Positions 1,180 through 10,992 of a stretch of DNA of 10,992 nucleotides are shown here, one piece after another. Numbering within the stretch: the stretch's first letter is position 1; each line of letters opens with the position of its first letter. A model generated the notes under the pieces. That model was given only the letters and a program-made list of their open reading frames with translations. It searched no databases and was not told the origin of the DNA. Both the position numbers and the translations under genes were made by a program. Source of the DNA: a virus (taxonomy: Duplodnaviria > Heunggongvirae > Uroviricota > Caudoviricetes); IMG/VR virus record IMGVR_UViG_2600255112_000003; one strand, given 5' to 3'.

Positions 1180-4023
1180 TCAATCTTTATCGTAAAAACT
1201 GCCACGCCCGGCACGGGCGCGCCGTTCCATTTCTGCCCTGACCATTTCACCGACCAGTTTCGCCAGTTCGCGGGGATTCTGCGTAACAACGTTATGCAGA
1301 TGAACATGAATTTCACCACCAAATCCGGAGGCAACAGGCTCCCGGTTACGGGAAGTTACAGGAACTGATGCCACTGGAGATCGTATAGCCTCCGCCACCG
1401 GGCGGGAGCTGGCCGCAACAACAGGGACCAGCGCCGGAGGCAGCGGAGCCGGGACCACGGGTGTGATATTAATTGCGGGGGCAGGCTTACTGACCTGCGC
1501 AATCTTCCGCTCCTGCCACTCCCCACGAACAGCAAGTGCTCGGGGCAGGTTTTTAAAGACAATATCGCCGGGGCCAATGCGTTTTTTCGTCTCCTCAACC
1601 AGCTTACCTGTGTTATCAGCAATTTTGCTGAGTCTGCGCAGCGTACCGGTATTGCTGTCTGTGAGCGGTTTATTGTCTTTGGGGTTATCACCTCCGGTGC
1701 CATTGCCATTTTCCACAGGCTTCGGCGGATTGATTTTCGCCAGGTCCCCCTGAAGCAAGGCAACCTTGTCCTGAAGAATGGCCGCACGCTGTGCGTCTTC
1801 GATTTTCTTGCGCGCCCTTTCCGCTTCATCCGGAAGCACACCAAGCTTTTCAAGTATCCACGCCAGCGTATCCAGCAACATTTTTGCAGGTGTCAGAACA
1901 AGTTGTAACGCACCGCCAAGAACGTTACCGAATATCTCGCCAGCACTGGTACATTTATCCAGCGTTTCCTTGCTGGACTCCATCGGTGACAGCAGCGATT
2001 TAAACCAGTTAAACACCTGGCTGATCCCACTCCCGATTGCGTCAAAAACAGGACCAAACCGTTCAAAGGTTTCGCGCAACGGGGTCAGCCTTTCCATAAT
2101 CCCGCTGAACACCCCGGCAAAAAATGCCCTGATGGGATCCCAGTATTTCCAGATAAGAACGGCAGCTCCGGCAAGCGCAGCCACGATAAGACCAACCGGA
2201 CTGAACAACGCCCCGATAGCGCCTCCCAGTAAAGAAACGGAACCCGTCACCATTCCCCATAGTGCTGGCAGAACCCTGACAGCATTCATTGATCCGGTCA
2301 GGAGGGAAAAACCAAGACGCAGTTTTGCCAGCGGGCCAGCAAGCACACCAATAGCCAGCGACAACGAGCCAACCGTTGCAGTCATTGCCAGCAGTGCACC
2401 GCCTGCAATCAGTAGCTGGCGCGTCAGTGCGGGATGGGCCTGCGCCAGCGCCGTCACCTTTGATACCACACGCGTGAGCCACTGCGTGACAGAACGCAGC
2501 GGACCGTCAATCAGATCTGCAATGCGGATGCGCAACCCTTCCCATGCACTGCTGAGTGATTTCAGATCGCCGTCAAGGTTGTTGGCCATAACCTTTGCCG
2601 TGCGTTCAGCCTCACCGCGCGCGCCTTCAAGTTCTTTTCTCAGTTTGGGTAAGGAGCCGTCACCTGCCGCATCAACGAGGGCCATAAATGATGTGAAAGC
2701 CTCTTCTCCGGCAATGTCCTTAAAGAACGATACCCGGTCAACTTCCCCGTATTTGCGGGTAGCTTTATAAAGGTCAGCCAGCACATCCTCCATCGGGCGC
2801 ATTTTGCCCCCGGCATCCGAGACAGACACGCCAAGCTCTTTCAGCGCCTCTGCTGCCGCCTTTGGCGGTGATGCCAGACGAGCCAGGCTGGCACGCATTG
2901 CCGTACCAGCATCACTCCCCCTGATACCCATATTCGCCAGCACGCCCGCCATCGCTGCGGCCTGCTCCAGCGATATTCCCAGCTTACCCGCCACCGGACC
3001 TGCATATTTCATGGTTTCACCCAGTGCGCGAAGGTCAGTGTTGGTACGGGTAAACGCTGCGGTGAGTGTGTCGCCGACCCGGCCCATCTGGTCAGCAGAA
3101 AGACCGAACTGCGTCAGAATATTTGAGCCAATATCCGCCGTCTCACCGAGGTCCATACCGCCAGCCGTTGCCATGCTCAGTACGCCAGGGAGCGCAGCCT
3201 GAATGGCCTGTGGTGTAAAGCCAGCCATTGCAAGAAATGCCTGTCCACTGGCGGCATCGCCTGCGGTGAACTGCGTTTCAGAGCCAAGTTTTAACGCCTG
3301 CTCACGCAGCGCCTTAAACTGCGGGCTGTTCTGGTCGATTCGCGTCAGTGCCTGAACGCGGGACATCTCTTTGCCGAACCCGATCGCAGGCTGCAAAAAA
3401 CGCCCGGCAGCATAGCCGCCCGCCGCTGCCGCACCAATTGCCAGCGCACCACCTGTTTTCAGTTTTCCCGCTGTTTCCTGCGCGCGCGAATACCGCTCAC
3501 GCGCCCGTGTTACACGCGCAAGCACCTGCCGTTCGCGTTCAAGCTGGTTGTTGTACTGTTCGGTGCGTCTGATGGCCTGCTGGATGGTGTTATCGCTGCC
3601 TGTCAGGGAAATGCCGTGGCGTTTCAGCTCTCCGCCAAGCTCCCGCATTTTCTGAATTTCCCGTGTGCGCGATTCATTCAGGCGTTCAAGCCGGGTGCTT
3701 AACTGCTGCATCAGCTTTTGTTGTTTTTCGCTGAGCACTGTACCCGTGCGTTGTAACTGATTAAGGGCGTTAAGCTGGCGTCGTGCTTTCACGATGCCCG
3801 CATCCGCTTTACTGACAGCGTCACGGGCGCGCTCAAATGATCGCGCCTGACGCTCGAGATTTTTGATCGCCCCCTGCGTTCGCTGGATGGAGTCACCAAA
3901 CTGCCCCATCAGGCGGCGGGCGTTTTCGGCAGGCCGGGTCAGCCTGTCAACGGCGCTGAAAGCGACCCGGATATCAAGAGTCTTCATTGTCTGCATTCCC
4001 GCTACGAAGTGCCGCCCGCTCAC
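1180..4023 (-). CDS. T: Tail tape measure protein (gpT-like)
   Basis: 947-aa ORF, Ala/Gly/Leu-rich, with a charged helical N-terminal third and central hydrophobic segments, positioned between E/E' and U as expected for a tape measure. The track start is GTG 4023; in-frame ATGs at 3996 and 3987 are alternative starts, and the start overlaps the end of the E' frame. Confidence 0.85.
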   Translation of the reverse strand: MSGRHFVAGMQTMKTLDIRVAFSAVDRLTRPAENARRLMGQFGDSIQRTQGAIKNLERQARSFERARDAVSKADAGIVKARRQLNALNQLQRTGTVLSEKQQKLMQQLSTRLERLNESRTREIQKMRELGGELKRHGISLTGSDNTIQQAIRRTEQYNNQLERERQVLARVTRARERYSRAQETAGKLKTGGALAIGAAAAGGYAAGRFLQPAIGFGKEMSRVQALTRIDQNSPQFKALREQALKLGSETQFTAGDAASGQAFLAMAGFTPQAIQAALPGVLSMATAGGMDLGETADIGSNILTQFGLSADQMGRVGDTLTAAFTRTNTDLRALGETMKYAGPVAGKLGISLEQAAAMAGVLANMGIRGSDAGTAMRASLARLASPPKAAAEALKELGVSVSDAGGKMRPMEDVLADLYKATRKYGEVDRVSFFKDIAGEEAFTSFMALVDAAGDGSLPKLRKELEGARGEAERTAKVMANNLDGDLKSLSSAWEGLRIRIADLIDGPLRSVTQWLTRVVSKVTALAQAHPALTRQLLIAGGALLAMTATVGSLSLAIGVLAGPLAKLRLGFSLLTGSMNAVRVLPALWGMVTGSVSLLGGAIGALFSPVGLIVAALAGAAVLIWKYWDPIRAFFAGVFSGIMERLTPLRETFERFGPVFDAIGSGISQVFNWFKSLLSPMESSKETLDKCTSAGEIFGNVLGGALQLVLTPAKMLLDTLAWILEKLGVLPDEAERARKKIEDAQRAAILQDKVALLQGDLAKINPPKPVENGNGTGGDNPKDNKPLTDSNTGTLRRLSKIADNTGKLVEETKKRIGPGDIVFKNLPRALAVRGEWQERKIAQVSKPAPAINITPVVPAPLPPALVPVVAASSRPVAEAIRSPVASVPVTSRNREPVASGFGGEIHVHLHNVVTQNPRELAKLVGEMVRAEMERRARAGRGSFYDKD

Positions 4024-4567: not shown

Positions 4568-5080
4568 TCAGCCAAGCCCAAGCGCGGAACGGATGCGATC
4601 GGGCACAATGTCCTTGCCGTCCTTCCGGTAAATGAAGTTCAGCAGGTCAATCTCCCACAACGGGCGATCGTTAACACTCAGCTTGTAGTAGGTGTTTTTA
4701 ATGGCGTAAGTGTGTGATGTGGCTTCGCCCTGTTTGGCTTCCCCCATATCAATTTCCGTCACACGTCCGCGCATTTCGACTTCATACAGGTCGCTTTCTG
4801 CATCGGTGTAGTATTCACCCGCAAAACGCAGCAGCGTGCCGTCAATCGTGCCGCCATACTTAAGGAACAGCTCACGAACTGCGCCCCCCATGACAAAGCT
4901 CGCATCAAGCGCGGAGTCGTCCAGACCGAGATCAATACTTACCGCACCCATCATGCCACCACCCCGGTAGCTGTCGGTTTTGCGCGTCAGCTTAGGCAGA
5001 GTGACGGACGTCACCTTACCCACTTCGTTTTCACCATCCACAAACAGCGTAAAAAAGCGAAGATGTTTTGGCACAGCCAT
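4568..5080 (-). CDS. FII: Tail tube protein FII
   Basis: 170-aa ORF, close to my recollection of P2 FII size, immediately downstream of the sheath gene. Its ATG shares one nucleotide with the FI stop (TGATG), indicating translational coupling. Confidence 0.9.
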   Translation of the reverse strand: MAVPKHLRFFTLFVDGENEVGKVTSVTLPKLTRKTDSYRGGGMMGAVSIDLGLDDSALDASFVMGGAVRELFLKYGGTIDGTLLRFAGEYYTDAESDLYEVEMRGRVTEIDMGEAKQGEATSHTYAIKNTYYKLSVNDRPLWEIDLLNFIYRKDGKDIVPDRIRSALGLG

Positions 5081-6264
5081 CAGGCACCTCCCAGCACCGC
5101 AAATGCGGGTTCAAAGTATTCATCAGTAAACGTCTGGTAAAGCTCCATGTCTTCCAGTGGCGGAACGGGCGTATATTTGTAGCGAATACGCACACGTCCC
5201 TGACGTAAATCCGTGGTGCTGTTATCCACCACGTCATACCAGCACTCCGCGCCAATCAGTTTCCCGGCAGTCACCAGTGAATCCAGTTTTGCCCTGATGG
5301 CACTGATAACATCCTTCACATTCGCAGGCGTCAGTGGACTGTCGATGGTTTCAAACTGCGCTTCCGCAATTGAATCAGCCAGCACCTGTGCGGTTCGGGT
5401 ATACACCTCAAAGATGTAGGCGTTCGTTTCCGGTGTGCGGTTACCCCAGAAGCGGAACCCGTTACGACGAATAATGGTCGTGATTTCTTTGTTGTTGAGG
5501 CTGTTGGCATCGCTGTCTTCGGCCTGCAACGACCAGAACACATGCCTCGACATCCCCAGCACATTTTTAACCGGAACGTTGGACAGTGATTTGTGCCATC
5601 CCTGTTCATGGTCAATGTACGCACGAAGGCCGCACGCATAGGCAGGCGCGGGGAACGTTTCGTTTTTGCCACTTTTCGGGTTGTAGGCGATGAAGTCCGG
5701 CCATAAGAGCATCACCTCACGTTCGTTGAATTTCTGGCGGTAGGTAATCGCCTCAGCCATCGTGTTACAGCCGTGACATGAGGCATACACAAACGCGCGC
5801 AGTTTACCTGCAATCACGCACAGGGATTTCGTTACCGCCTCCGTGTCCAGCTCCGGCGCGGCCAGAATACGCGGACGGTATCCGATGCTTTCATCCTGCT
5901 CTGCAACAAGCAGCGCATACATCCCCGTATAGCTGCCGTCATCCTCAGAACCACCGATAACCAGTTGATCCTGCGTCTTTCCGTCTTCTTCTTTGTGTTC
6001 AGCCACGCGAACGACGATCACCTTTGTGCTCACCTGGTCTGCGATGGCCTTAAGCGCACGATAAAGCGTCCCCGTTGTTCCGCATTTTCCCAGCACGTCA
6101 TTGACGCGGGTCAGCAGTGTGGGCTTGTTCAGCGGGAACAGCTTCGCGTCCGCATCATCCGCCGTTGCCACGATACCGATAACGCTGGAATCAACATCGT
6201 TAATCGCTGTTACCAGGTCGGTATTTTCCGTAACACGGGCACCATGAAAACGAGTTTCACTCAT
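5080..6264 (-). CDS. FI: Contractile tail sheath protein FI
   Basis: 394-aa ORF starting MSETRFHGARVTE, with size and position (first gene of the sheath-tube-chaperone-tape measure operon) as in P2 FI. ATG at 6264-6262. Confidence 0.9.
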   Translation of the reverse strand: MSETRFHGARVTENTDLVTAINDVDSSVIGIVATADDADAKLFPLNKPTLLTRVNDVLGKCGTTGTLYRALKAIADQVSTKVIVVRVAEHKEEDGKTQDQLVIGGSEDDGSYTGMYALLVAEQDESIGYRPRILAAPELDTEAVTKSLCVIAGKLRAFVYASCHGCNTMAEAITYRQKFNEREVMLLWPDFIAYNPKSGKNETFPAPAYACGLRAYIDHEQGWHKSLSNVPVKNVLGMSRHVFWSLQAEDSDANSLNNKEITTIIRRNGFRFWGNRTPETNAYIFEVYTRTAQVLADSIAEAQFETIDSPLTPANVKDVISAIRAKLDSLVTAGKLIGAECWYDVVDNSTTDLRQGRVRIRYKYTPVPPLEDMELYQTFTDEYFEPAFAVLGGA

Positions 6265-6421
6265 AGCTTCAGCCCCTTGTATCCGTTAAATGATTCGGCA
6301 ACAATCATCACCCACCACGCGCGTAATCTCACCCCTGCGCCGTTCTCCCGATTCGGCGACAACAAAAAGCAGTAACCCCTTCCGCACGCACATGCGACCA
6401 TGCCGCACAGGGAGGGAACAG

Positions 6422-7531
6422 ATGACCGATACCACCATGCAATTGCTCAGTCAGGGCACGGCCCCCGTGAAAATGCCGGATTTGGATATTTTCGCGGAGG
6501 GTAAAACGCTGTCAGGCGTGGCAGAGCGCCTGATGAACCTGTCACTGACCGACAACCGGGGATTTGAAGCGGACCAGCTCACCATCACGCTGGATGATGC
6601 GGATGGTCAGTTGCAGCTACCGCCACGGGGCGCGCGCCTGACGGTTCTCATTGGCTGGAAAGGAGAGCCGCTGACAGAAAAAGGCACTTACATTGTTGAT
6701 GAAATCGCTCACGAAGGACCGCCGGACAGGCTGACTGTTTCAGCCAGAAGCGCAGATTTTCGGGATGAATTTAACGTTAAACGTGAGGTGTCCTGGCATG
6801 ATGTGACCGTTGAGCGTGTGGTATCCGCCATCGCTCATCGGTATGGTCTGAAACCGCAAATCAGCGAAATGCTGATGGATATCGAAATCGACCACGCCGA
6901 CCAGACCGAAGAAAGCGACATGTCCTTCCTTACGCGCATGGCGGAAATGCTGGGCGCAATCACCACGGTAAAAAGCGGCAATCTGTTATTCATCATGCCA
7001 GGTGGTGGCGTGAACGCACAGGGCCAGCCGTTGCCCTCGTTCGCCATTACACGCAGCAGCGGCGATCGCCATCAGTTCCGCATTGCTGACCGCGAGGCGT
7101 ATACGGGGGTACGTGCCTACTGGCTTGATCTTAATTACGGGAAAAAGAAAAAAGTCAGCGTGAAACGCCGTAAACCGCCAAAACCCAAAAAGGAGAAAAG
7201 CAGCAGCCGTGAAGGTGATTATATGGAGGGCGCGGAAGGCAATGTGTTTGTGTTACGCAAGACTTATCAGAACGAGCAGGCAGCAAGACGCGCAGCGGCG
7301 GCAAAGTGGCAGCAGCTACAACGCGGAGCCGCATCATTCTCCATCACGCTGGCGCGTGGACGCGCAGAACTCTATCCCGAAATGCATGGCACGGTAACAG
7401 GATTTAAAAGCGAGATTGATAATCAGGACTGGATTATTGCAAAAGCCGAGCACACCATTGATAACAGCGGCTTTACCACGCAGCTTGAGCTTGAGGCAAA
7501 AATCCCGGAATGGATAGCGGAAACAGAGTGA
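6422..7531 (+). CDS. D: P2-like tail protein gpD (late control gene D family)
   Basis: Long ORF immediately upstream of ogr, with a basic KKKKVSVKRRKPPKPKKEK linker. The track ORF begins at 6290, but ATG 6422 is preceded by GGAGGG (6411-6416) and gives about 369 aa, close to my recollection of P2 gpD size. Confidence 0.85.
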   Translation: MTDTTMQLLSQGTAPVKMPDLDIFAEGKTLSGVAERLMNLSLTDNRGFEADQLTITLDDADGQLQLPPRGARLTVLIGWKGEPLTEKGTYIVDEIAHEGPPDRLTVSARSADFRDEFNVKREVSWHDVTVERVVSAIAHRYGLKPQISEMLMDIEIDHADQTEESDMSFLTRMAEMLGAITTVKSGNLLFIMPGGGVNAQGQPLPSFAITRSSGDRHQFRIADREAYTGVRAYWLDLNYGKKKKVSVKRRKPPKPKKEKSSSREGDYMEGAEGNVFVLRKTYQNEQAARRAAAAKWQQLQRGAASFSITLARGRAELYPEMHGTVTGFKSEIDNQDWIIAKAEHTIDNSGFTTQLELEAKIPEWIAETE

Positions 7532-7573: not shown

Positions 7574-7834
7574 ATGTTCCGTTGTCCGCTTTGTGGCGCA
7601 TCTGCCCGTATCCGCACCAGTCGCCCGGAAAATGATTCAAACACCGTGCGGCAAAAGTATTACCAGTGTAACAACCTGGAATGCGGCGTATGCTTCTCAA
7701 CACTGGAAGCCTTCCATAAATTCACATCGAAACACGCCTCCGGCGTTCACTCATCAGAAGGCATCCCGTGGCATGAGCTGCCAGCTTCACACAGGGGAAA
7801 CAATCAGATGAGTTTGCCTTTACCTCAGAATTAA
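7574..7834 (+). CDS. ogr: Ogr/Delta-family zinc-finger late transcription activator
   Basis: 86-aa protein MFRCPLCGASARIRTSR...YYQCNNLECGVCF carrying the Cys-x2-Cys...Cys-x4-Cys zinc-binding arrangement of P2 Ogr. AGGGAGG Shine-Dalgarno lies upstream, and the gene follows D as in P2. Confidence 0.85.
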   Translation: MFRCPLCGASARIRTSRPENDSNTVRQKYYQCNNLECGVCFSTLEAFHKFTSKHASGVHSSEGIPWHELPASHRGNNQMSLPLPQN

Positions 7835-7894: not shown

Positions 7895-8107
7895 ATGGTC
7901 GGAGGGAATACCCGAAGGCCGGATGTGGAAAGGCCCCGGAAAACATATCTGTTTAACCGAGGCCCTAACCGCATTACCTTGACAAGTGAAAGGTTAGCGC
8001 CTCTCCGGAAAAGGAGCAAGTGCTATGTCGCAAAAATCGCTTACGGCCATCACGTTCTGCGTGACGGCAATCCTCATCATCTGGATGCTGCACGGTTCGC
8101 TGTGTGA
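7895..8107 (+). CDS. mok-like overlapping reading frame upstream of and overlapping hok
   Basis: 70-codon ORF in a different frame that starts upstream of hok and ends inside it, the geometry of mok in hok/sok loci. I see no clear Shine-Dalgarno and cannot confirm by similarity. Confidence 0.3.
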   Translation: MVGGNTRRPDVERPRKTYLFNRGPNRITLTSERLAPLRKRSKCYVAKIAYGHHVLRDGNPHHLDAARFAV

Positions 8108-8165
8108 AATACGGATGAGTTTCTGGGGAGCGGAGTTTGCGGCGTTCTTACAGTGTAAGCAGTAA
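8025..8165 (+). CDS. hok: Hok/Gef-family type I toxin (small membrane peptide)
   Basis: Not in the ORF track (46 aa). ATG 8025 is preceded by AAGGAG (8011-8016). Translation MSQKSLTAITFCVTAILIIWMLHGSLCEIRMSFWGAEFAAFLQCKQ has an N-terminal transmembrane helix followed by the SLCE(I/L)R ... E-x-AAFL-x-CK signature, closest to my recollection of HokA. Confidence 0.75.
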   Translation: MSQKSLTAITFCVTAILIIWMLHGSLCEIRMSFWGAEFAAFLQCKQ

Positions 8166-8174
8166 GGAAACCGC

Positions 8175-8196
8175 GACGGGGGAGCAATCCCCCGTC
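8175..8196 (+). other. Stable stem-loop just 3' of hok, possibly part of the hok mRNA 3' structure
   Basis: Perfect 9-bp stem gacggggga / tcccccgtc with a gcaa loop, 10 nt after the hok stop. There is no U-tract, so it is not a classical intrinsic terminator. Confidence 0.4.
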
Positions 8197-8226
8197 AATC
8201 GGTTGCCAGGGTAAGGTCGATAAGGC

Positions 8227-8321
8227 ACCCTATCTCACCAATGCCGTTCAGTTAGTTAAGGAATTGAGGTTCGAGCTATCGAACCTCAATTCCTTAACTG
8301 AACTACATTACCCTATCTCAC
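8227..8321. mobile_element. 71-bp palindromic miniature element with IS4-like termini, flanked by a 12-bp target-site duplication
   Basis: Exact 12-bp direct repeats ACCCTATCTCAC at 8227-8238 and 8310-8321 flank 8239-8309. The enclosed segment is almost entirely an inverted repeat: a 16-bp perfect stem, a gcta centre, and 9 more pairs after a 4-nt gtta bulge. Both tips begin AATG, and AATGCCGTTCAGTTA..AGGA resembles my recollection of the IS4 terminal repeat. A 12-bp duplication fits the 11-13 bp made by IS4-family transposases. Confidence 0.55.
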
Positions 8322-8445
8322 AGCTCTAAATGCAAAAATCCCATGAAACTGTGGGTATTTCATCACACACTGACACTGCTCTACCTTTCTATATGTATCA
8401 CTCTAAACCAGTTAATCAATTGGCACTTATCAACAACAAAAAATC

Positions 8446-8454
8446 TGATAAAAT
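8446..8454 (+). promoter_or_regulatory. Candidate extended -10 promoter for the AT-rich two-gene cassette
   Basis: TGaTAAAAT about 55 nt upstream of ATG 8509 in an AT-rich leader, with no good -35 at proper spacing. Confidence 0.3.
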
Positions 8455-8508
8455 CAAAATGTTTTGTAACAAATTTCAGCTTGTAGTGTTCCAAAGGAGA
8501 CGAATTAC

Positions 8509-8841
8509 ATGACATTAATCAAATGTCCTGAATGCCAGAAAGAGGTAAGCGATTCAGCATTATGTTGCCCTGCTTGTGGTAAACAACTGAAAAAACTTAA
8601 GCGTTCATTTTTTGGAAAACTCATTAAATGGACTTTTATATTTTTTAATATTTTTATGATCTATACACTTTTAGTTGGACTAGGAGGCGCTGATGAAATA
8701 ATAAACAATACCACATCCGATGCCGAAAAAGCTGGGGCAGTTATTGGTACGGGCTTAGGTTTAATTGTCATTGGAGGCTTATGGGTTATTGGCGATATCA
8801 TTATCGGAATTTTAGTATTTCTTACTAAACCAAAGGGATAA
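8509..8841 (+). CDS. Small membrane protein with N-terminal zinc ribbon and two predicted transmembrane helices
   Basis: AAGGAG Shine-Dalgarno 9 nt upstream. CPECQ-x12-CCPACG forms a four-cysteine zinc ribbon, followed by hydrophobic segments WTFIFFNIFMIYTLLVGLGG and AVIGTGLGLIVIGGLWVIGDIIIGILVFL. The coding sequence is visibly AT-rich. Confidence 0.7.
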   Translation: MTLIKCPECQKEVSDSALCCPACGKQLKKLKRSFFGKLIKWTFIFFNIFMIYTLLVGLGGADEIINNTTSDAEKAGAVIGTGLGLIVIGGLWVIGDIIIGILVFLTKPKG

Positions 8842-8845
8842 TAAA

Positions 8846-9739
8846 ATGAAAAATATGATTTTTTCTATAGGTGCATTATTTATATCAATTAGTGTACTGC
8901 CTGTTCATGCAGCAACTGAACATAAGAATTTCAATGCAGTGCTCCAGTGCCGAGCGATAGAAAACAATAAAGACAGACTTTCTTGTTACGATAAGTCAAT
9001 ACAACCGACTCGAACGAAAGTTGCTGAAAAATTTGAAAGCAGGGATCAATGCCCTGATGAGAAAGATGATGACAAACGTTTATCTTGTTATGATCGTTTT
9101 TTTTCTCCAACATTTACTCCATCTGTAAACTCAAAATCTAAAACGGAAAAGCTAGTAACAACAAAGGCTCAGCAACCAAATCTTTCTGAAATATCTAAAT
9201 GCCGAGCAGAAAATGATAAAGAAGCCAGACTAAACTGCTACGATAAACTATTCCCACAGGATGAAGCTGTTCAATCTGAATCACAATTAGAGAAAGCCAC
9301 AGATGCAGGAAAATGGCACACGTCCATTACTACATCGCCAATTGATGATTCGAAAAATATAATTTTATCGTTAGAAAGTGATGATTATATCAGAACTCCA
9401 TTTGGAGAAGCTGTTACTCCCACTCTGTTTATAGCTTGCCGAGAAAAGAAAACCGAAGTATTTCTTAGTTGGGATGTATATTTAGGCCTTGAACAAACCA
9501 GCATGCTGTATCGTCTTGATAAACAGAAAGCAGTTGAAAGAAACTGGCTAATATCTACAGATACAAAGGCTGTTTTTTATAAAGGTAATGATATTGATTT
9601 CATAAGAAAACTTGCCAACTCACATAAAATGTACACAAAAATAACCCCTTATAATGAAAGCCCTGTAAGTGCAACTTTCAATTTAAGCGGCCTGTCAAAT
9701 GCACTAAAACCGCTTCAAGATGCTTGTAACTGGAAATAG
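8846..9739 (+). CDS. Secreted (Sec signal peptide) cysteine-repeat protein of unknown function
   Basis: Starts 4 nt after the upstream stop with an AGGG ribosome-binding site, so it is likely co-transcribed. N-terminus MKNMIFSIGALFISISVLPVHA/AT is a typical signal peptide with an AxA cleavage site. Three repeats of C-x11-C-Y-D-[KR] are followed by a C-terminal domain of about 150 aa with two more cysteines. Confidence 0.75.
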   Translation: MKNMIFSIGALFISISVLPVHAATEHKNFNAVLQCRAIENNKDRLSCYDKSIQPTRTKVAEKFESRDQCPDEKDDDKRLSCYDRFFSPTFTPSVNSKSKTEKLVTTKAQQPNLSEISKCRAENDKEARLNCYDKLFPQDEAVQSESQLEKATDAGKWHTSITTSPIDDSKNIILSLESDDYIRTPFGEAVTPTLFIACREKKTEVFLSWDVYLGLEQTSMLYRLDKQKAVERNWLISTDTKAVFYKGNDIDFIRKLANSHKMYTKITPYNESPVSATFNLSGLSNALKPLQDACNWK

Positions 9740-9757
9740 TATATACCTCCCCAATAT

Positions 9758-9799
9758 CAGATGACAAAACGCCCGTGAAAACGGGCGTTTTGTCATCTG
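9758..9799. terminator. Strong bidirectional intrinsic terminator
   Basis: Perfect 18-bp inverted repeat cagatgacaaaacgcccg / cgggcgttttgtcatctg with a 6-nt loop. The GC core is flanked by A/T runs on both strands, 19 nt after the cassette stop. Confidence 0.8.
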
Positions 9800-9940
9800 T
9801 AACTCGAAAATGTGGTCATTGCGTGGACATACGATGATATAAATCCTTTTATATCAAAAGATTAAACCACTATTATTTTCCTCAACAAGGATTTTCACGT
9901 TTGTGTTACCTGTATGAGACGAGAGTTAACCAGACAAGTG

Positions 9941-9949
9941 TGCCATAAT
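9941..9949 (+). promoter_or_regulatory. Candidate extended -10 promoter for flk
   Basis: TGcCATAAT about 48 nt upstream of ATG 9997, with no convincing -35. Eye call only. Confidence 0.25.
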
Positions 9950-9996
9950 CTCGCGGCCAGGCATACTTGCGAAGATTTCAGGTATAAGGATACGTA

Positions 9997-10992
9997 ATGA
10001 TACAACCTATTTCCGGCCCTCCTCCTGGGCAACCACCAGGTCAGGGAGATAACCTGCCGTCTGGCGCGGGCAATCAGCCTTTATCCAGTCAGCAACGTAC
10101 TTCGCTGGAAAGCTTAATGACGAAAGTGACCTCACTGACGCAACAACAAAGAGCAGAACTGTGGGCGGGTATCAGGCACGATATTGGTCTGTCGGGAGAT
10201 TCACCGCTGCTTTCGCGTCACTTCCCTGCCGCTGAGCATAATCTGGCGCAACGTCTGTTGGCCGCGCAGAAAAGCCATTCTGCCCGCCAGCTTTTAGCGC
10301 AATTAGGGGAGTATTTACGTCTGGGGAATAATCGTCAGGCGGTCACGGATTATATCCGTCATAACTTTGGTCAGACGCCGCTGAATCAGCTCTCACCGGA
10401 GCAATTAAAAACCATTCTCACCCTGTTGCAGGAAGGGAAGATGGTTATTCCGCAACCACAGCAGCGCGAGGCGACCGACCGTCCTTTATTACCGGCGGAG
10501 CACAATGCGCTCAAACAGCTGGTGACCAAACTTGCGGCAGCAACGGGGGAACCCAGCAAACAGATCTGGCAATCGATGCTGGAACTTTCCGGGGTGAAAG
10601 ATGGCGAGTTAATTCCAGCGAAACTGTTTAACCATCTGGTGACCTGGCTACAGGCGCGTCAGACGCTAAGCCAGCAAAATACGCCGACACTGGAATCACT
10701 ACAGATGGCGCTAAAACAACCTTTAGATGCCAGTGAACTGGCGGCGTTATCGACATATATCCAACAAAAATATGGCCTTTCTGCGCAATCATCGCTTTCT
10801 TCTTCCCAGGCCGAGGATATTCTTAACCAGCTTTATCAACGGCGGGTTAAAGGGATTGAACCGCGTGATATGCAACCGCTGCTTAATCCTTTTCCACCGA
10901 TGATGGACACGTTGCAAAATATGGCAACGCGTCCCGCGCTGTGGATACTGTTAGTCGCGATTATCCTGATGCTGGTCTGGCTGGTTCGTTAA
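9997..10992 (+). CDS. flk: Flagellar regulator Flk (C-tail-anchored inner-membrane protein)
   Basis: 331-aa ORF with N-terminus MIQPISGPPPGQPPGQGDNLPSG, a Gln/Leu-rich body and a single C-terminal hydrophobic anchor ALWILLVAIILMLVWLVR. This matches my recollection of enterobacterial Flk in sequence, length and topology. AAGGA Shine-Dalgarno 6 nt upstream. Confidence 0.8.
   Translation: MIQPISGPPPGQPPGQGDNLPSGAGNQPLSSQQRTSLESLMTKVTSLTQQQRAELWAGIRHDIGLSGDSPLLSRHFPAAEHNLAQRLLAAQKSHSARQLLAQLGEYLRLGNNRQAVTDYIRHNFGQTPLNQLSPEQLKTILTLLQEGKMVIPQPQQREATDRPLLPAEHNALKQLVTKLAAATGEPSKQIWQSMLELSGVKDGELIPAKLFNHLVTWLQARQTLSQQNTPTLESLQMALKQPLDASELAALSTYIQQKYGLSAQSSLSSSQAEDILNQLYQRRVKGIEPRDMQPLLNPFPPMMDTLQNMATRPALWILLVAIILMLVWLVR

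Follow-up and report, generated by a model that had tools for sequence, protein, structure and literature searches.

A VasI-family protein with three cysteine hairpins

The window analyzed here, a 10,992-nucleotide stretch of virus record IMGVR_UViG_2600255112_000003, is E. coli chromosome carrying the end of a P88-like (Xuanwuvirus, Peduoviridae) P2-family prophage that adjoins the host gene flk. Near this end an open reading frame (ORF; 8846–9739, + strand) encodes an exported protein of 297 amino acids, which is assigned to the VasI/TagO family (PF11319) from Pfam, its PGAP name TagO, phrog_1848 (E 3.5e-37) and an AlphaFold2 model. It lies directly behind a gene for a 110-residue membrane protein with a zinc ribbon (8509–8841, + strand), and the two genes together are the subject of this report.

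A sequence-only reading of this DNA had drawn attention to three repeats of the pattern C-x11-C-Y-D-[K/R] in a secreted protein. Export is supported by a predicted Sec signal peptide covering residues 1–22 (8846–8911), cut after VHA; read by eye, it runs MKNMIFSIGALFISISVLPVHA followed by ATEH. The three repeats lie exactly where they had been placed, at residues 35–50, 69–84 and 119–134, and they are not a product of composition. The protein's own composition predicts 6.5e-5 copies of the motif per sequence, and among 200,000 composition-preserving shuffles at least one copy occurred in nine and at least two copies in none. A hidden Markov model (HMM) built from 42 single-copy relatives matches the protein three times (29.1, 14.4 and 299.8 bits), the first match taking in the signal peptide and the third the C-terminal domain. 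When isolated, units 1, 2 and 3 each match the start of PF11319 (positions 1–28, or 1–27 for unit 1) with 19.8, 16.8 and 22.1 bits, respectively.

An AlphaFold2 model calculated from a 79-sequence alignment (mean predicted local distance difference test score, pLDDT, 75.9) has in every unit a short helix joined by a loop to a longer one, over about 20–23 residues in all and with pLDDT of about 80–87. Unit 1 (8930–8998) has helices at residues 29–35 and 41–51 and the core CRAIENNKDRLSCYDK at nt 8948–8995; unit 2 (9041–9100) has helices at 66–71 and 75–85 and the core CPDEKDDDKRLSCYDR at nt 9050–9097; and unit 3 (9182–9250) has helices at 113–120 and 125–135 and the core CRAENDKEARLNCYDK at nt 9200–9247. 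All three are on the + strand. Helix A of each unit ends with the first cysteine, and helix B contains the second, in an invariant RLxCYD, a placement in the model that fits a disulfide-stapled hairpin. Residues 155–297 (9308–9736, + strand) form the C-terminal VasI domain, a beta-sandwich with two helices modeled at pLDDT above 90. Disordered linkers (pLDDT below 50 at residues 56–60, 89–109 and 139–150) separate these parts, and residues 1–26 are also below 50.

The protein has eight cysteines, at positions 35, 47, 69, 81, 119, 131, 198 and 294, which can make four predicted pairs, three within the units and a fourth between C198 and C294. Conservation is consistent with this arrangement. 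In 79 non-redundant units from relatives both cysteines, the arginine and the aspartate are invariant, with leucine and tyrosine present in at least 90%; across 79 relatives C119, R128, L129, C131, D133 and C198 never vary, and C294 is kept in at least 90%. The proposal that each unit closes into a small disulfide loop is thus supported by invariant cysteine pairs and by a predicted helix-loop-helix compatible with a stapled hairpin.

The repeats had also been described as repeating in the DNA, and this holds only in part. Units 1 and 3 do have TGCCGAGC...TACGATAA in common, but the 48-nt cores of these two units are identical at 32/48 bases and unit 2 matches either of them at 25/48, and a repeat finder picks up only fragments of 12–15 nt. 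Such weak identity between the cores indicates that the duplication is old, and the likeness of the units in DNA is, judged from these alignments, a residue of amino-acid conservation. A recent DNA duplication was considered as the origin of the repeats and is ruled out by the core identities and by the persistence of the three-unit form across genera, as it is kept in Klebsiella, Enterobacter, Raoultella and Pantoea at 55–64% protein identity.

Hairpin number varies within the family. Among 93 relatives, 44 have one unit (∼210 residues), 19 have two (∼250 residues) and 29 have three (∼297 residues). The single hairpin of the one-copy members corresponds to unit 3, and the flanks of unit 2 (KFESRDQC...CYDRFFSPTF) are common to the second unit of the two-copy proteins. 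What is repeated, three times in tandem and ahead of an IalB-like beta domain, is the VasI/TagO N-terminal cysteine hairpin, and we regard this identity and architecture as close to certain.

Family membership and comparison with known proteins

The whole protein matches PF11319 with 90.8 bits (gathering threshold 26.5, E 1.1e-25) in three stretches, the best of which, residues 118–296, covers profile positions 1–184 of 184. It misses the cut-off of the NCBIfam equivalog TIGR03360 (78.9 versus 124.2 bits). A search of the PDB by sequence gave no meaningful match to the protein. Like the VasI/TagO proteins V. cholerae VCA0118 and E. coli EDL933_RS01165, the window protein is exported, starts with a C-x11-CYD hairpin and ends in a beta domain with a conserved cysteine pair; those proteins have one hairpin, however, whereas the window protein has three. 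The EDL933 VasI is 25% identical to it (E 4e-11), and its gene is flanked by tssH and tssA in a type VI secretion system (T6SS) cluster; the window protein, in contrast, is prophage-encoded and accompanied by a zinc-ribbon membrane partner.

The sequence-only reading had compared the repeats to the DUF1311/LprI family and suggested a multivalent ligand or inhibitor, and one explanation of the protein is accordingly a periplasmic inhibitor of, for example, lysozyme or peptidoglycan-hydrolase effectors, in which each disulfide loop is a binding module. The protein is indeed exported, cysteine-rich and repetitive, its hairpins are helical and cysteine-framed in the AlphaFold2 model, and DUF1311/LprI domains (PF07007) are likewise small, helical, cysteine-containing and extracytoplasmic. 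No resemblance to them was detected in sequence or profile, however: PF07007 has no match to the whole protein (E≤1) or to any unit taken alone (E≤10), and cysteine spacing and architecture are different. Lysozyme-inhibitor folds (MliC, PliC, Ivy, LprI) are absent among the PDB matches listed, and the occurrence of the hairpin in unrelated proteins (see below) better fits a general structural or docking module. The DUF1311 comparison is therefore dropped; since the PF11319 model itself begins with the C-x11-CYD motif, VasI/TagO is the correct family. We consider an inhibitor of this type improbable, although cargo that blocks an incoming muralytic enzyme would be protective too, so that this explanation overlaps in part with the function favored below. 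The E. coli EDL933 DUF1311-domain protein used for comparison, unrelated in sequence to the window protein (BLASTP E 4.8), belongs to the T6SS-2 locus (L049, 17166–17615, − strand), where only a few genes separate it from hcp.

Matches to IalB (PF06776; PDB 3DTD), both in Pfam and in structure, are confined to the C-terminal domain and leave the hairpin region uncovered; identity is 15–17%, and the Pfam score is under the gathering threshold (19.4 versus 22.1). By analogy with IalB the gene could be a lysogenic-conversion factor that acts on an animal host or on surface properties, and it is indeed carried by a clinical E. coli isolate as well as by Klebsiella pneumoniae and Citrobacter rodentium. 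However, IalB has itself no defined molecular function, the family is widespread in environmental Proteobacteria, the protein has a Sec signal with no further secretion signal, and its partner sits in the inner membrane. We thus give little credence to a conversion role.

The hairpin as a mobile module

A 40-column profile of the 79 units was compared with 1.84 billion representative proteins and at E≤1e-3 matches 291 of them, on a variety of scaffolds. A phospholipase A1 (P0114; PLA1 E 2.5e-82) has one N-terminal unit, Sel1 and pentapeptide-repeat proteins (P0097, P0106, P0107 and P0140) have four tandem units at their end, a VasI protein (P0102) has four, and protein P0105 has six matched stretches. 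Many other matches are proteins of 160–230 residues with two units and a C-terminal domain that has no Pfam assignment. The Pfam marks on these hairpin proteins are only partial PF11319 matches, at positions 1–30. Taken together, the partial matches and the unrelated scaffolds indicate that the hairpin behaves as an independent module, with no Pfam model of its own, and it merits one, because it now yields partial PF11319 matches on unrelated proteins.

One set of these proteins stands out, comprising P0112, P0126, P0160, P0163 and about 30 others, which are exported, 160–260 residues long and have one or two hairpins. They share a conserved C-terminal segment, ...LDNGQxW...G..V.I....LGS......VKRV, with no Pfam assignment of its own, which may be an undescribed domain family.

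The gene pair as prophage cargo

The last conserved phage gene is an ogr/Delta-like late activator (7574–7834, + strand), behind which the cargo begins. An ORF for a Hok/Gef toxin (MokW-like; 8025–8165, + strand; phrog_251, E 1.3e-22) is neighboring cargo, and the pair follows in a low-GC islet that closes the prophage on the right (8200–9895) and has the VasI-like gene as its last, with GC of 33–38% over ∼8200–9950 versus about 52–55% in the flanks. The segment is 97–99% identical to Xuanwuvirus P884B11 (P88_4B11, NC_049391). This homology stops at window position 9895, which is taken to place the right attachment site, attR, just upstream of 9895, and flk starts at 9997. A tRNA-linked island was considered and rejected, as the window has no tRNA and the islet is within a prophage that ends near 9895.

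In Xuanwuvirus P884B11 the pair sits between ogr/hok and the integrase gene (98.7% amino-acid identity), and four more sequenced temperate phages have it, namely the Escherichia phages 500465-2 and PhiR44_2, the Citrobacter phage Shae_phiSM and the Klebsiella phage 3LV2017. It is missing from P88 and from other Xuanwuvirus genomes. Among 5426 complete E. coli genomes, 237 carry the pair. Compared with its relatives the window is without ∼1.4 kb of cargo at a 22-bp junction (8266–8287) between hok and the zinc-ribbon gene; the extra DNA holds two hypothetical genes in P88_4B11 and a gene for a RES-family NAD+ phosphorylase toxin in E. coli 14EC020. This variable ∼1.4 kb identifies the phage end as a swappable multi-slot cargo region, and hok, the RES toxin, an alpha/beta hydrolase and a TM2-domain protein are all found as swappable cargo beyond ogr near att.

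The VasI-like gene is thus inside the prophage boundaries, occurs in sequenced phages and is variably present among close phages, which are the marks of a moron, and it is very probably prophage cargo. It resembles the P2-family morons old, tin and Z/fun and the hotspot cargo of PMC9122126 in that these are variable modules on temperate phages, like the low-GC pair here. It differs from them in position, as the P2 moron hotspots are at gpA-gpQ or in the tail genes and the slot of the pair runs from ogr to attR, and in the compartment of its products, which would act in the envelope rather than in the cytoplasm.

A role in the phage's own cycle, such as lysis timing, tail assembly or DNA injection, might be suggested by the position of the gene next to tail and ogr genes and by the relationship of the phage tail, a contractile injection device, to the T6SS. 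Against it, the gene is dispensable, as its absence from P88 and other Xuanwuvirus genomes indicates, has an atypically low GC content, and is placed beyond ogr by att among swappable cargo. Such a role is very unlikely.

A conserved zinc-ribbon membrane partner

The partner protein (110 residues; phrog_6586, E 5e-38) has an N-terminal CxxC...CxxC zinc ribbon followed by two hydrophobic segments, and its zinc-ribbon Pfam matches are all below cut-off. Its stop codon is 4 nt before the start of the VasI-like gene. The gene is kept directly upstream of VasI-like genes in Escherichia, Klebsiella, Enterobacter, Raoultella, Salmonella and Brenneria as well as in phage records. Residues 28–109 of the partner weakly resemble the cell-division protein DrpB/YedR (NCBIfam NF038392, E 0.0018), and the precomputed Pfam marks on a Klebsiella orthologue include DrpB, also weakly.

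The two parts also occur within single ORFs. In a metagenome-assembled genome (MAG) of Aeoliella (Planctomycetota) one ORF joins a zinc ribbon, 13/24 identical to that of the window partner, to a transmembrane segment and a VasI domain, and in a Desulfobulbaceae MAG one ORF has a zinc ribbon between two transmembrane segments, followed by a VasI domain 48% identical to that of the window protein. These zinc-ribbon/VasI fusions suggest a joint action of the two window proteins in which the VasI domain is held against the inner membrane on its periplasmic side, although the strength of this inference is moderate because zinc ribbons are common. We consider it probable that the VasI-like protein works with its zinc-ribbon partner. 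The set of natural-fusion-like ORFs in the Aeoliella and Desulfobulbaceae MAGs comprises L046 6638–7417, L029 6392–7435 and L043 4462–5364 (all + strand), and in a third MAG ORF a plain membrane anchor replaces the hairpins.

Genomic context of relatives

The loci of close enterobacterial relatives that were read, in E. coli, Klebsiella and Enterobacter, are all just 3′ of ogr at the end of a P88-like prophage, and most of these relatives come after the gene for the 110-residue zinc-ribbon protein. In Klebsiella a three-copy protein follows ogr and the zinc-ribbon gene of a P2-like prophage inserted at yccJ/wrbA. A two-copy protein in E. coli closes a P2-like prophage at ytfP/tamB, where hok and a TM2-domain gene are its neighbors. 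At fieF/pfkA, in both Klebsiella and Enterobacter, one-copy proteins follow ogr and the zinc-ribbon gene. P2-like prophages with three-, two- and one-copy relatives occupy four different host sites.

A wider scan took one genome per species and covered 36 loci, 10 enterobacterial and 26 non-enterobacterial. Sheath, tube, gpD and ogr are present as a set in 6/10 of the enterobacterial loci, five of which also have the zinc-ribbon gene. No ClpV- or TssM-like neighbor families are common to the 26 non-enterobacterial loci, and there is no type VI cluster around the window gene or around the loci of close relatives that were read.

These observations bear on the possibility that the prophage supplies a T6SS accessory protein (TagO/VasI) that tunes the host's own T6SS in trans. 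Membership of PF11319, the PGAP name and the identity of 25% (E 4e-11) to the VasI between tssH and tssA of EDL933 favor it, as does the behavior of V. cholerae VasI (VCA0118), which is needed for efficient killing and dispensable for secretion of Hcp and VgrG (PMC3166118), and so alters killing rather than secretion. However, the protein is below the TIGR03360 cut-off, the close relatives' loci are at prophage ends and none is near type VI genes, the 36 scanned loci have no neighbor family common enough to point to a type VI cluster and, in particular, none of ClpV or TssM size, and the conserved partner is a zinc-ribbon membrane protein and no Tss protein. We therefore regard a T6SS accessory as an unlikely identity for the gene. 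The RefSeq name 'T6SS-associated protein TagO' is homology-based, and the context at a prophage end does not support it. RefSeq applies this name, and with it a type VI accessory role, in hundreds of E. coli and Klebsiella genomes. The evidence makes the gene instead cargo of a prophage, with another partner, and its inclusion in T6SS inventories and virulence-gene tables is misleading.

A 4.2-kb contig labeled Planococcaceae bacterium UBA3378 (L013, DEQA01000038.1) encodes gpD, hok and VasI-like products 95–99% identical to those of the window. This contig of a Firmicutes-labeled MAG is probably mis-binned or a contaminant.

A possible role in protection of the lysogen

The best reading of the pair, and one to which we would give about an even chance, is that of an envelope-acting prophage cargo (moron) pair in which the hairpins are spacer or docking beads and which probably protects the lysogen, a function that we infer. 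The protective function taken on its own is plausible, albeit with the balance tipped slightly against it. The pair would be expressed from the lysogen as a moron. The VasI-like protein would be exported by Sec and then oxidized by DsbA to form C35–C47, C69–C81, C119–C131 and C198–C294, and its site of action would be the periplasm, alongside the zinc-ribbon protein of the inner membrane. The stapled hairpins could serve as rigid beads on a flexible tether, acting as spacers or docking modules, and their number (one, two or three, depending on the prophage) may set reach or avidity, with the activity itself residing in the beta domain. The most likely role would be protection of the lysogen at the level of the envelope, by superinfection exclusion or anti-phage defense, and a possible further one is interference with other contractile injection devices.

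A precedent is provided by SDIC4B, which has a VasI-like fold, is encoded away from T6SS loci and alone protects 10–200-fold against phages (bioRxiv 10.1101/2024.01.28.577318); SDIC4 is included in DefenseFinder (PMC13639185). SDIC4 (SDIC4A and SDIC4B, from the Serratia LptG-YjiA island) is, like the window pair, a two-gene module with a VasI-like fold, and both are outside type VI clusters and widespread in Enterobacteria. The feature that characterizes SDIC4-type modules, a VasI-like fold in a short operon away from T6SS loci, is found in the window pair. P2-like prophages are established carriers of anti-phage cargo (PMC9122126, PMC13586616).

Several observations weigh against this interpretation. 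SDIC4B reportedly has no BLAST similarity to type VI VasI and often adjoins BrxR in chromosomal islands, the comparison with the window pair being one of descriptions only; the window protein, in contrast, is recognizably VasI by sequence, and the pair is at a P2-like prophage end with no BrxR neighbor. Kinship with SDIC4 is unproven because of this VasI similarity and the missing BrxR neighbor. PADLOC-DB v2.0.0, a release older than SDIC4, contains no match for the VasI-like, zinc-ribbon or hok proteins, and the ogr-to-att end is not among the defense hotspots given in the accessible part of PMC13586616. As to the partner, a Pantoea three-copy relative (L017) has no zinc-ribbon match upstream, and the zinc-ribbon similarity of the fusions spans only ∼24 residues of a common motif.

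A broader proposal combines these elements. C-x11-CYD would be an autonomous extracytoplasmic module shuffled in one to six copies onto VasI, phospholipase A1 (PLA1/OMPLA), Sel1, pentapeptide-repeat and 'LDNGQxW...VKRV' scaffolds, and the window pair would be an unrecognized two-component envelope protection system, mechanistically related to SDIC4, in an undescribed ogr–attR slot. As a whole we offer this as speculative and doubtful.

Three points make the locus of interest, namely a mobile cysteine hairpin that has been tripled, the prophage-cargo setting, and a conserved zinc-ribbon partner with natural fusions. VasI is among the least understood of the T6SS-linked proteins, and a phage-borne branch that varies in hairpin number and comes with a membrane partner and natural fusions is a tractable handle on the periplasmic role of the VasI fold. 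If the pair does block phage or contractile injection at the envelope, it would be a periplasm-acting addition to the mostly cytoplasmic defense cargo of P2 prophages.

Other features of the window

The remainder of the prophage end comprises genes for gpU (679–1173), tape measure (1180–4023), tube (4568–5080) and sheath (5080–6264), all on the − strand, and for gpD (6290–7531) on the + strand; gpE is also among the annotated neighbors, along with tape measure, tube, sheath, gpD, ogr and hok. A GC-rich stem-loop (8174–8197) directly follows the Hok/Gef ORF. A candidate promoter 5′ of the gene pair, TTATCA-16-TAAAAT with a TG (8427–8454, + strand), is a consensus match only, and in a promoter and terminator scan of the window the number of sites was not above shuffle expectation. 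In all of the P88-like prophages fetched the layout is divergent, with sheath, tube, tape measure and gpU on the minus strand and gpD and ogr on the plus strand. Classical P2 has FI to ogr as one co-oriented block.

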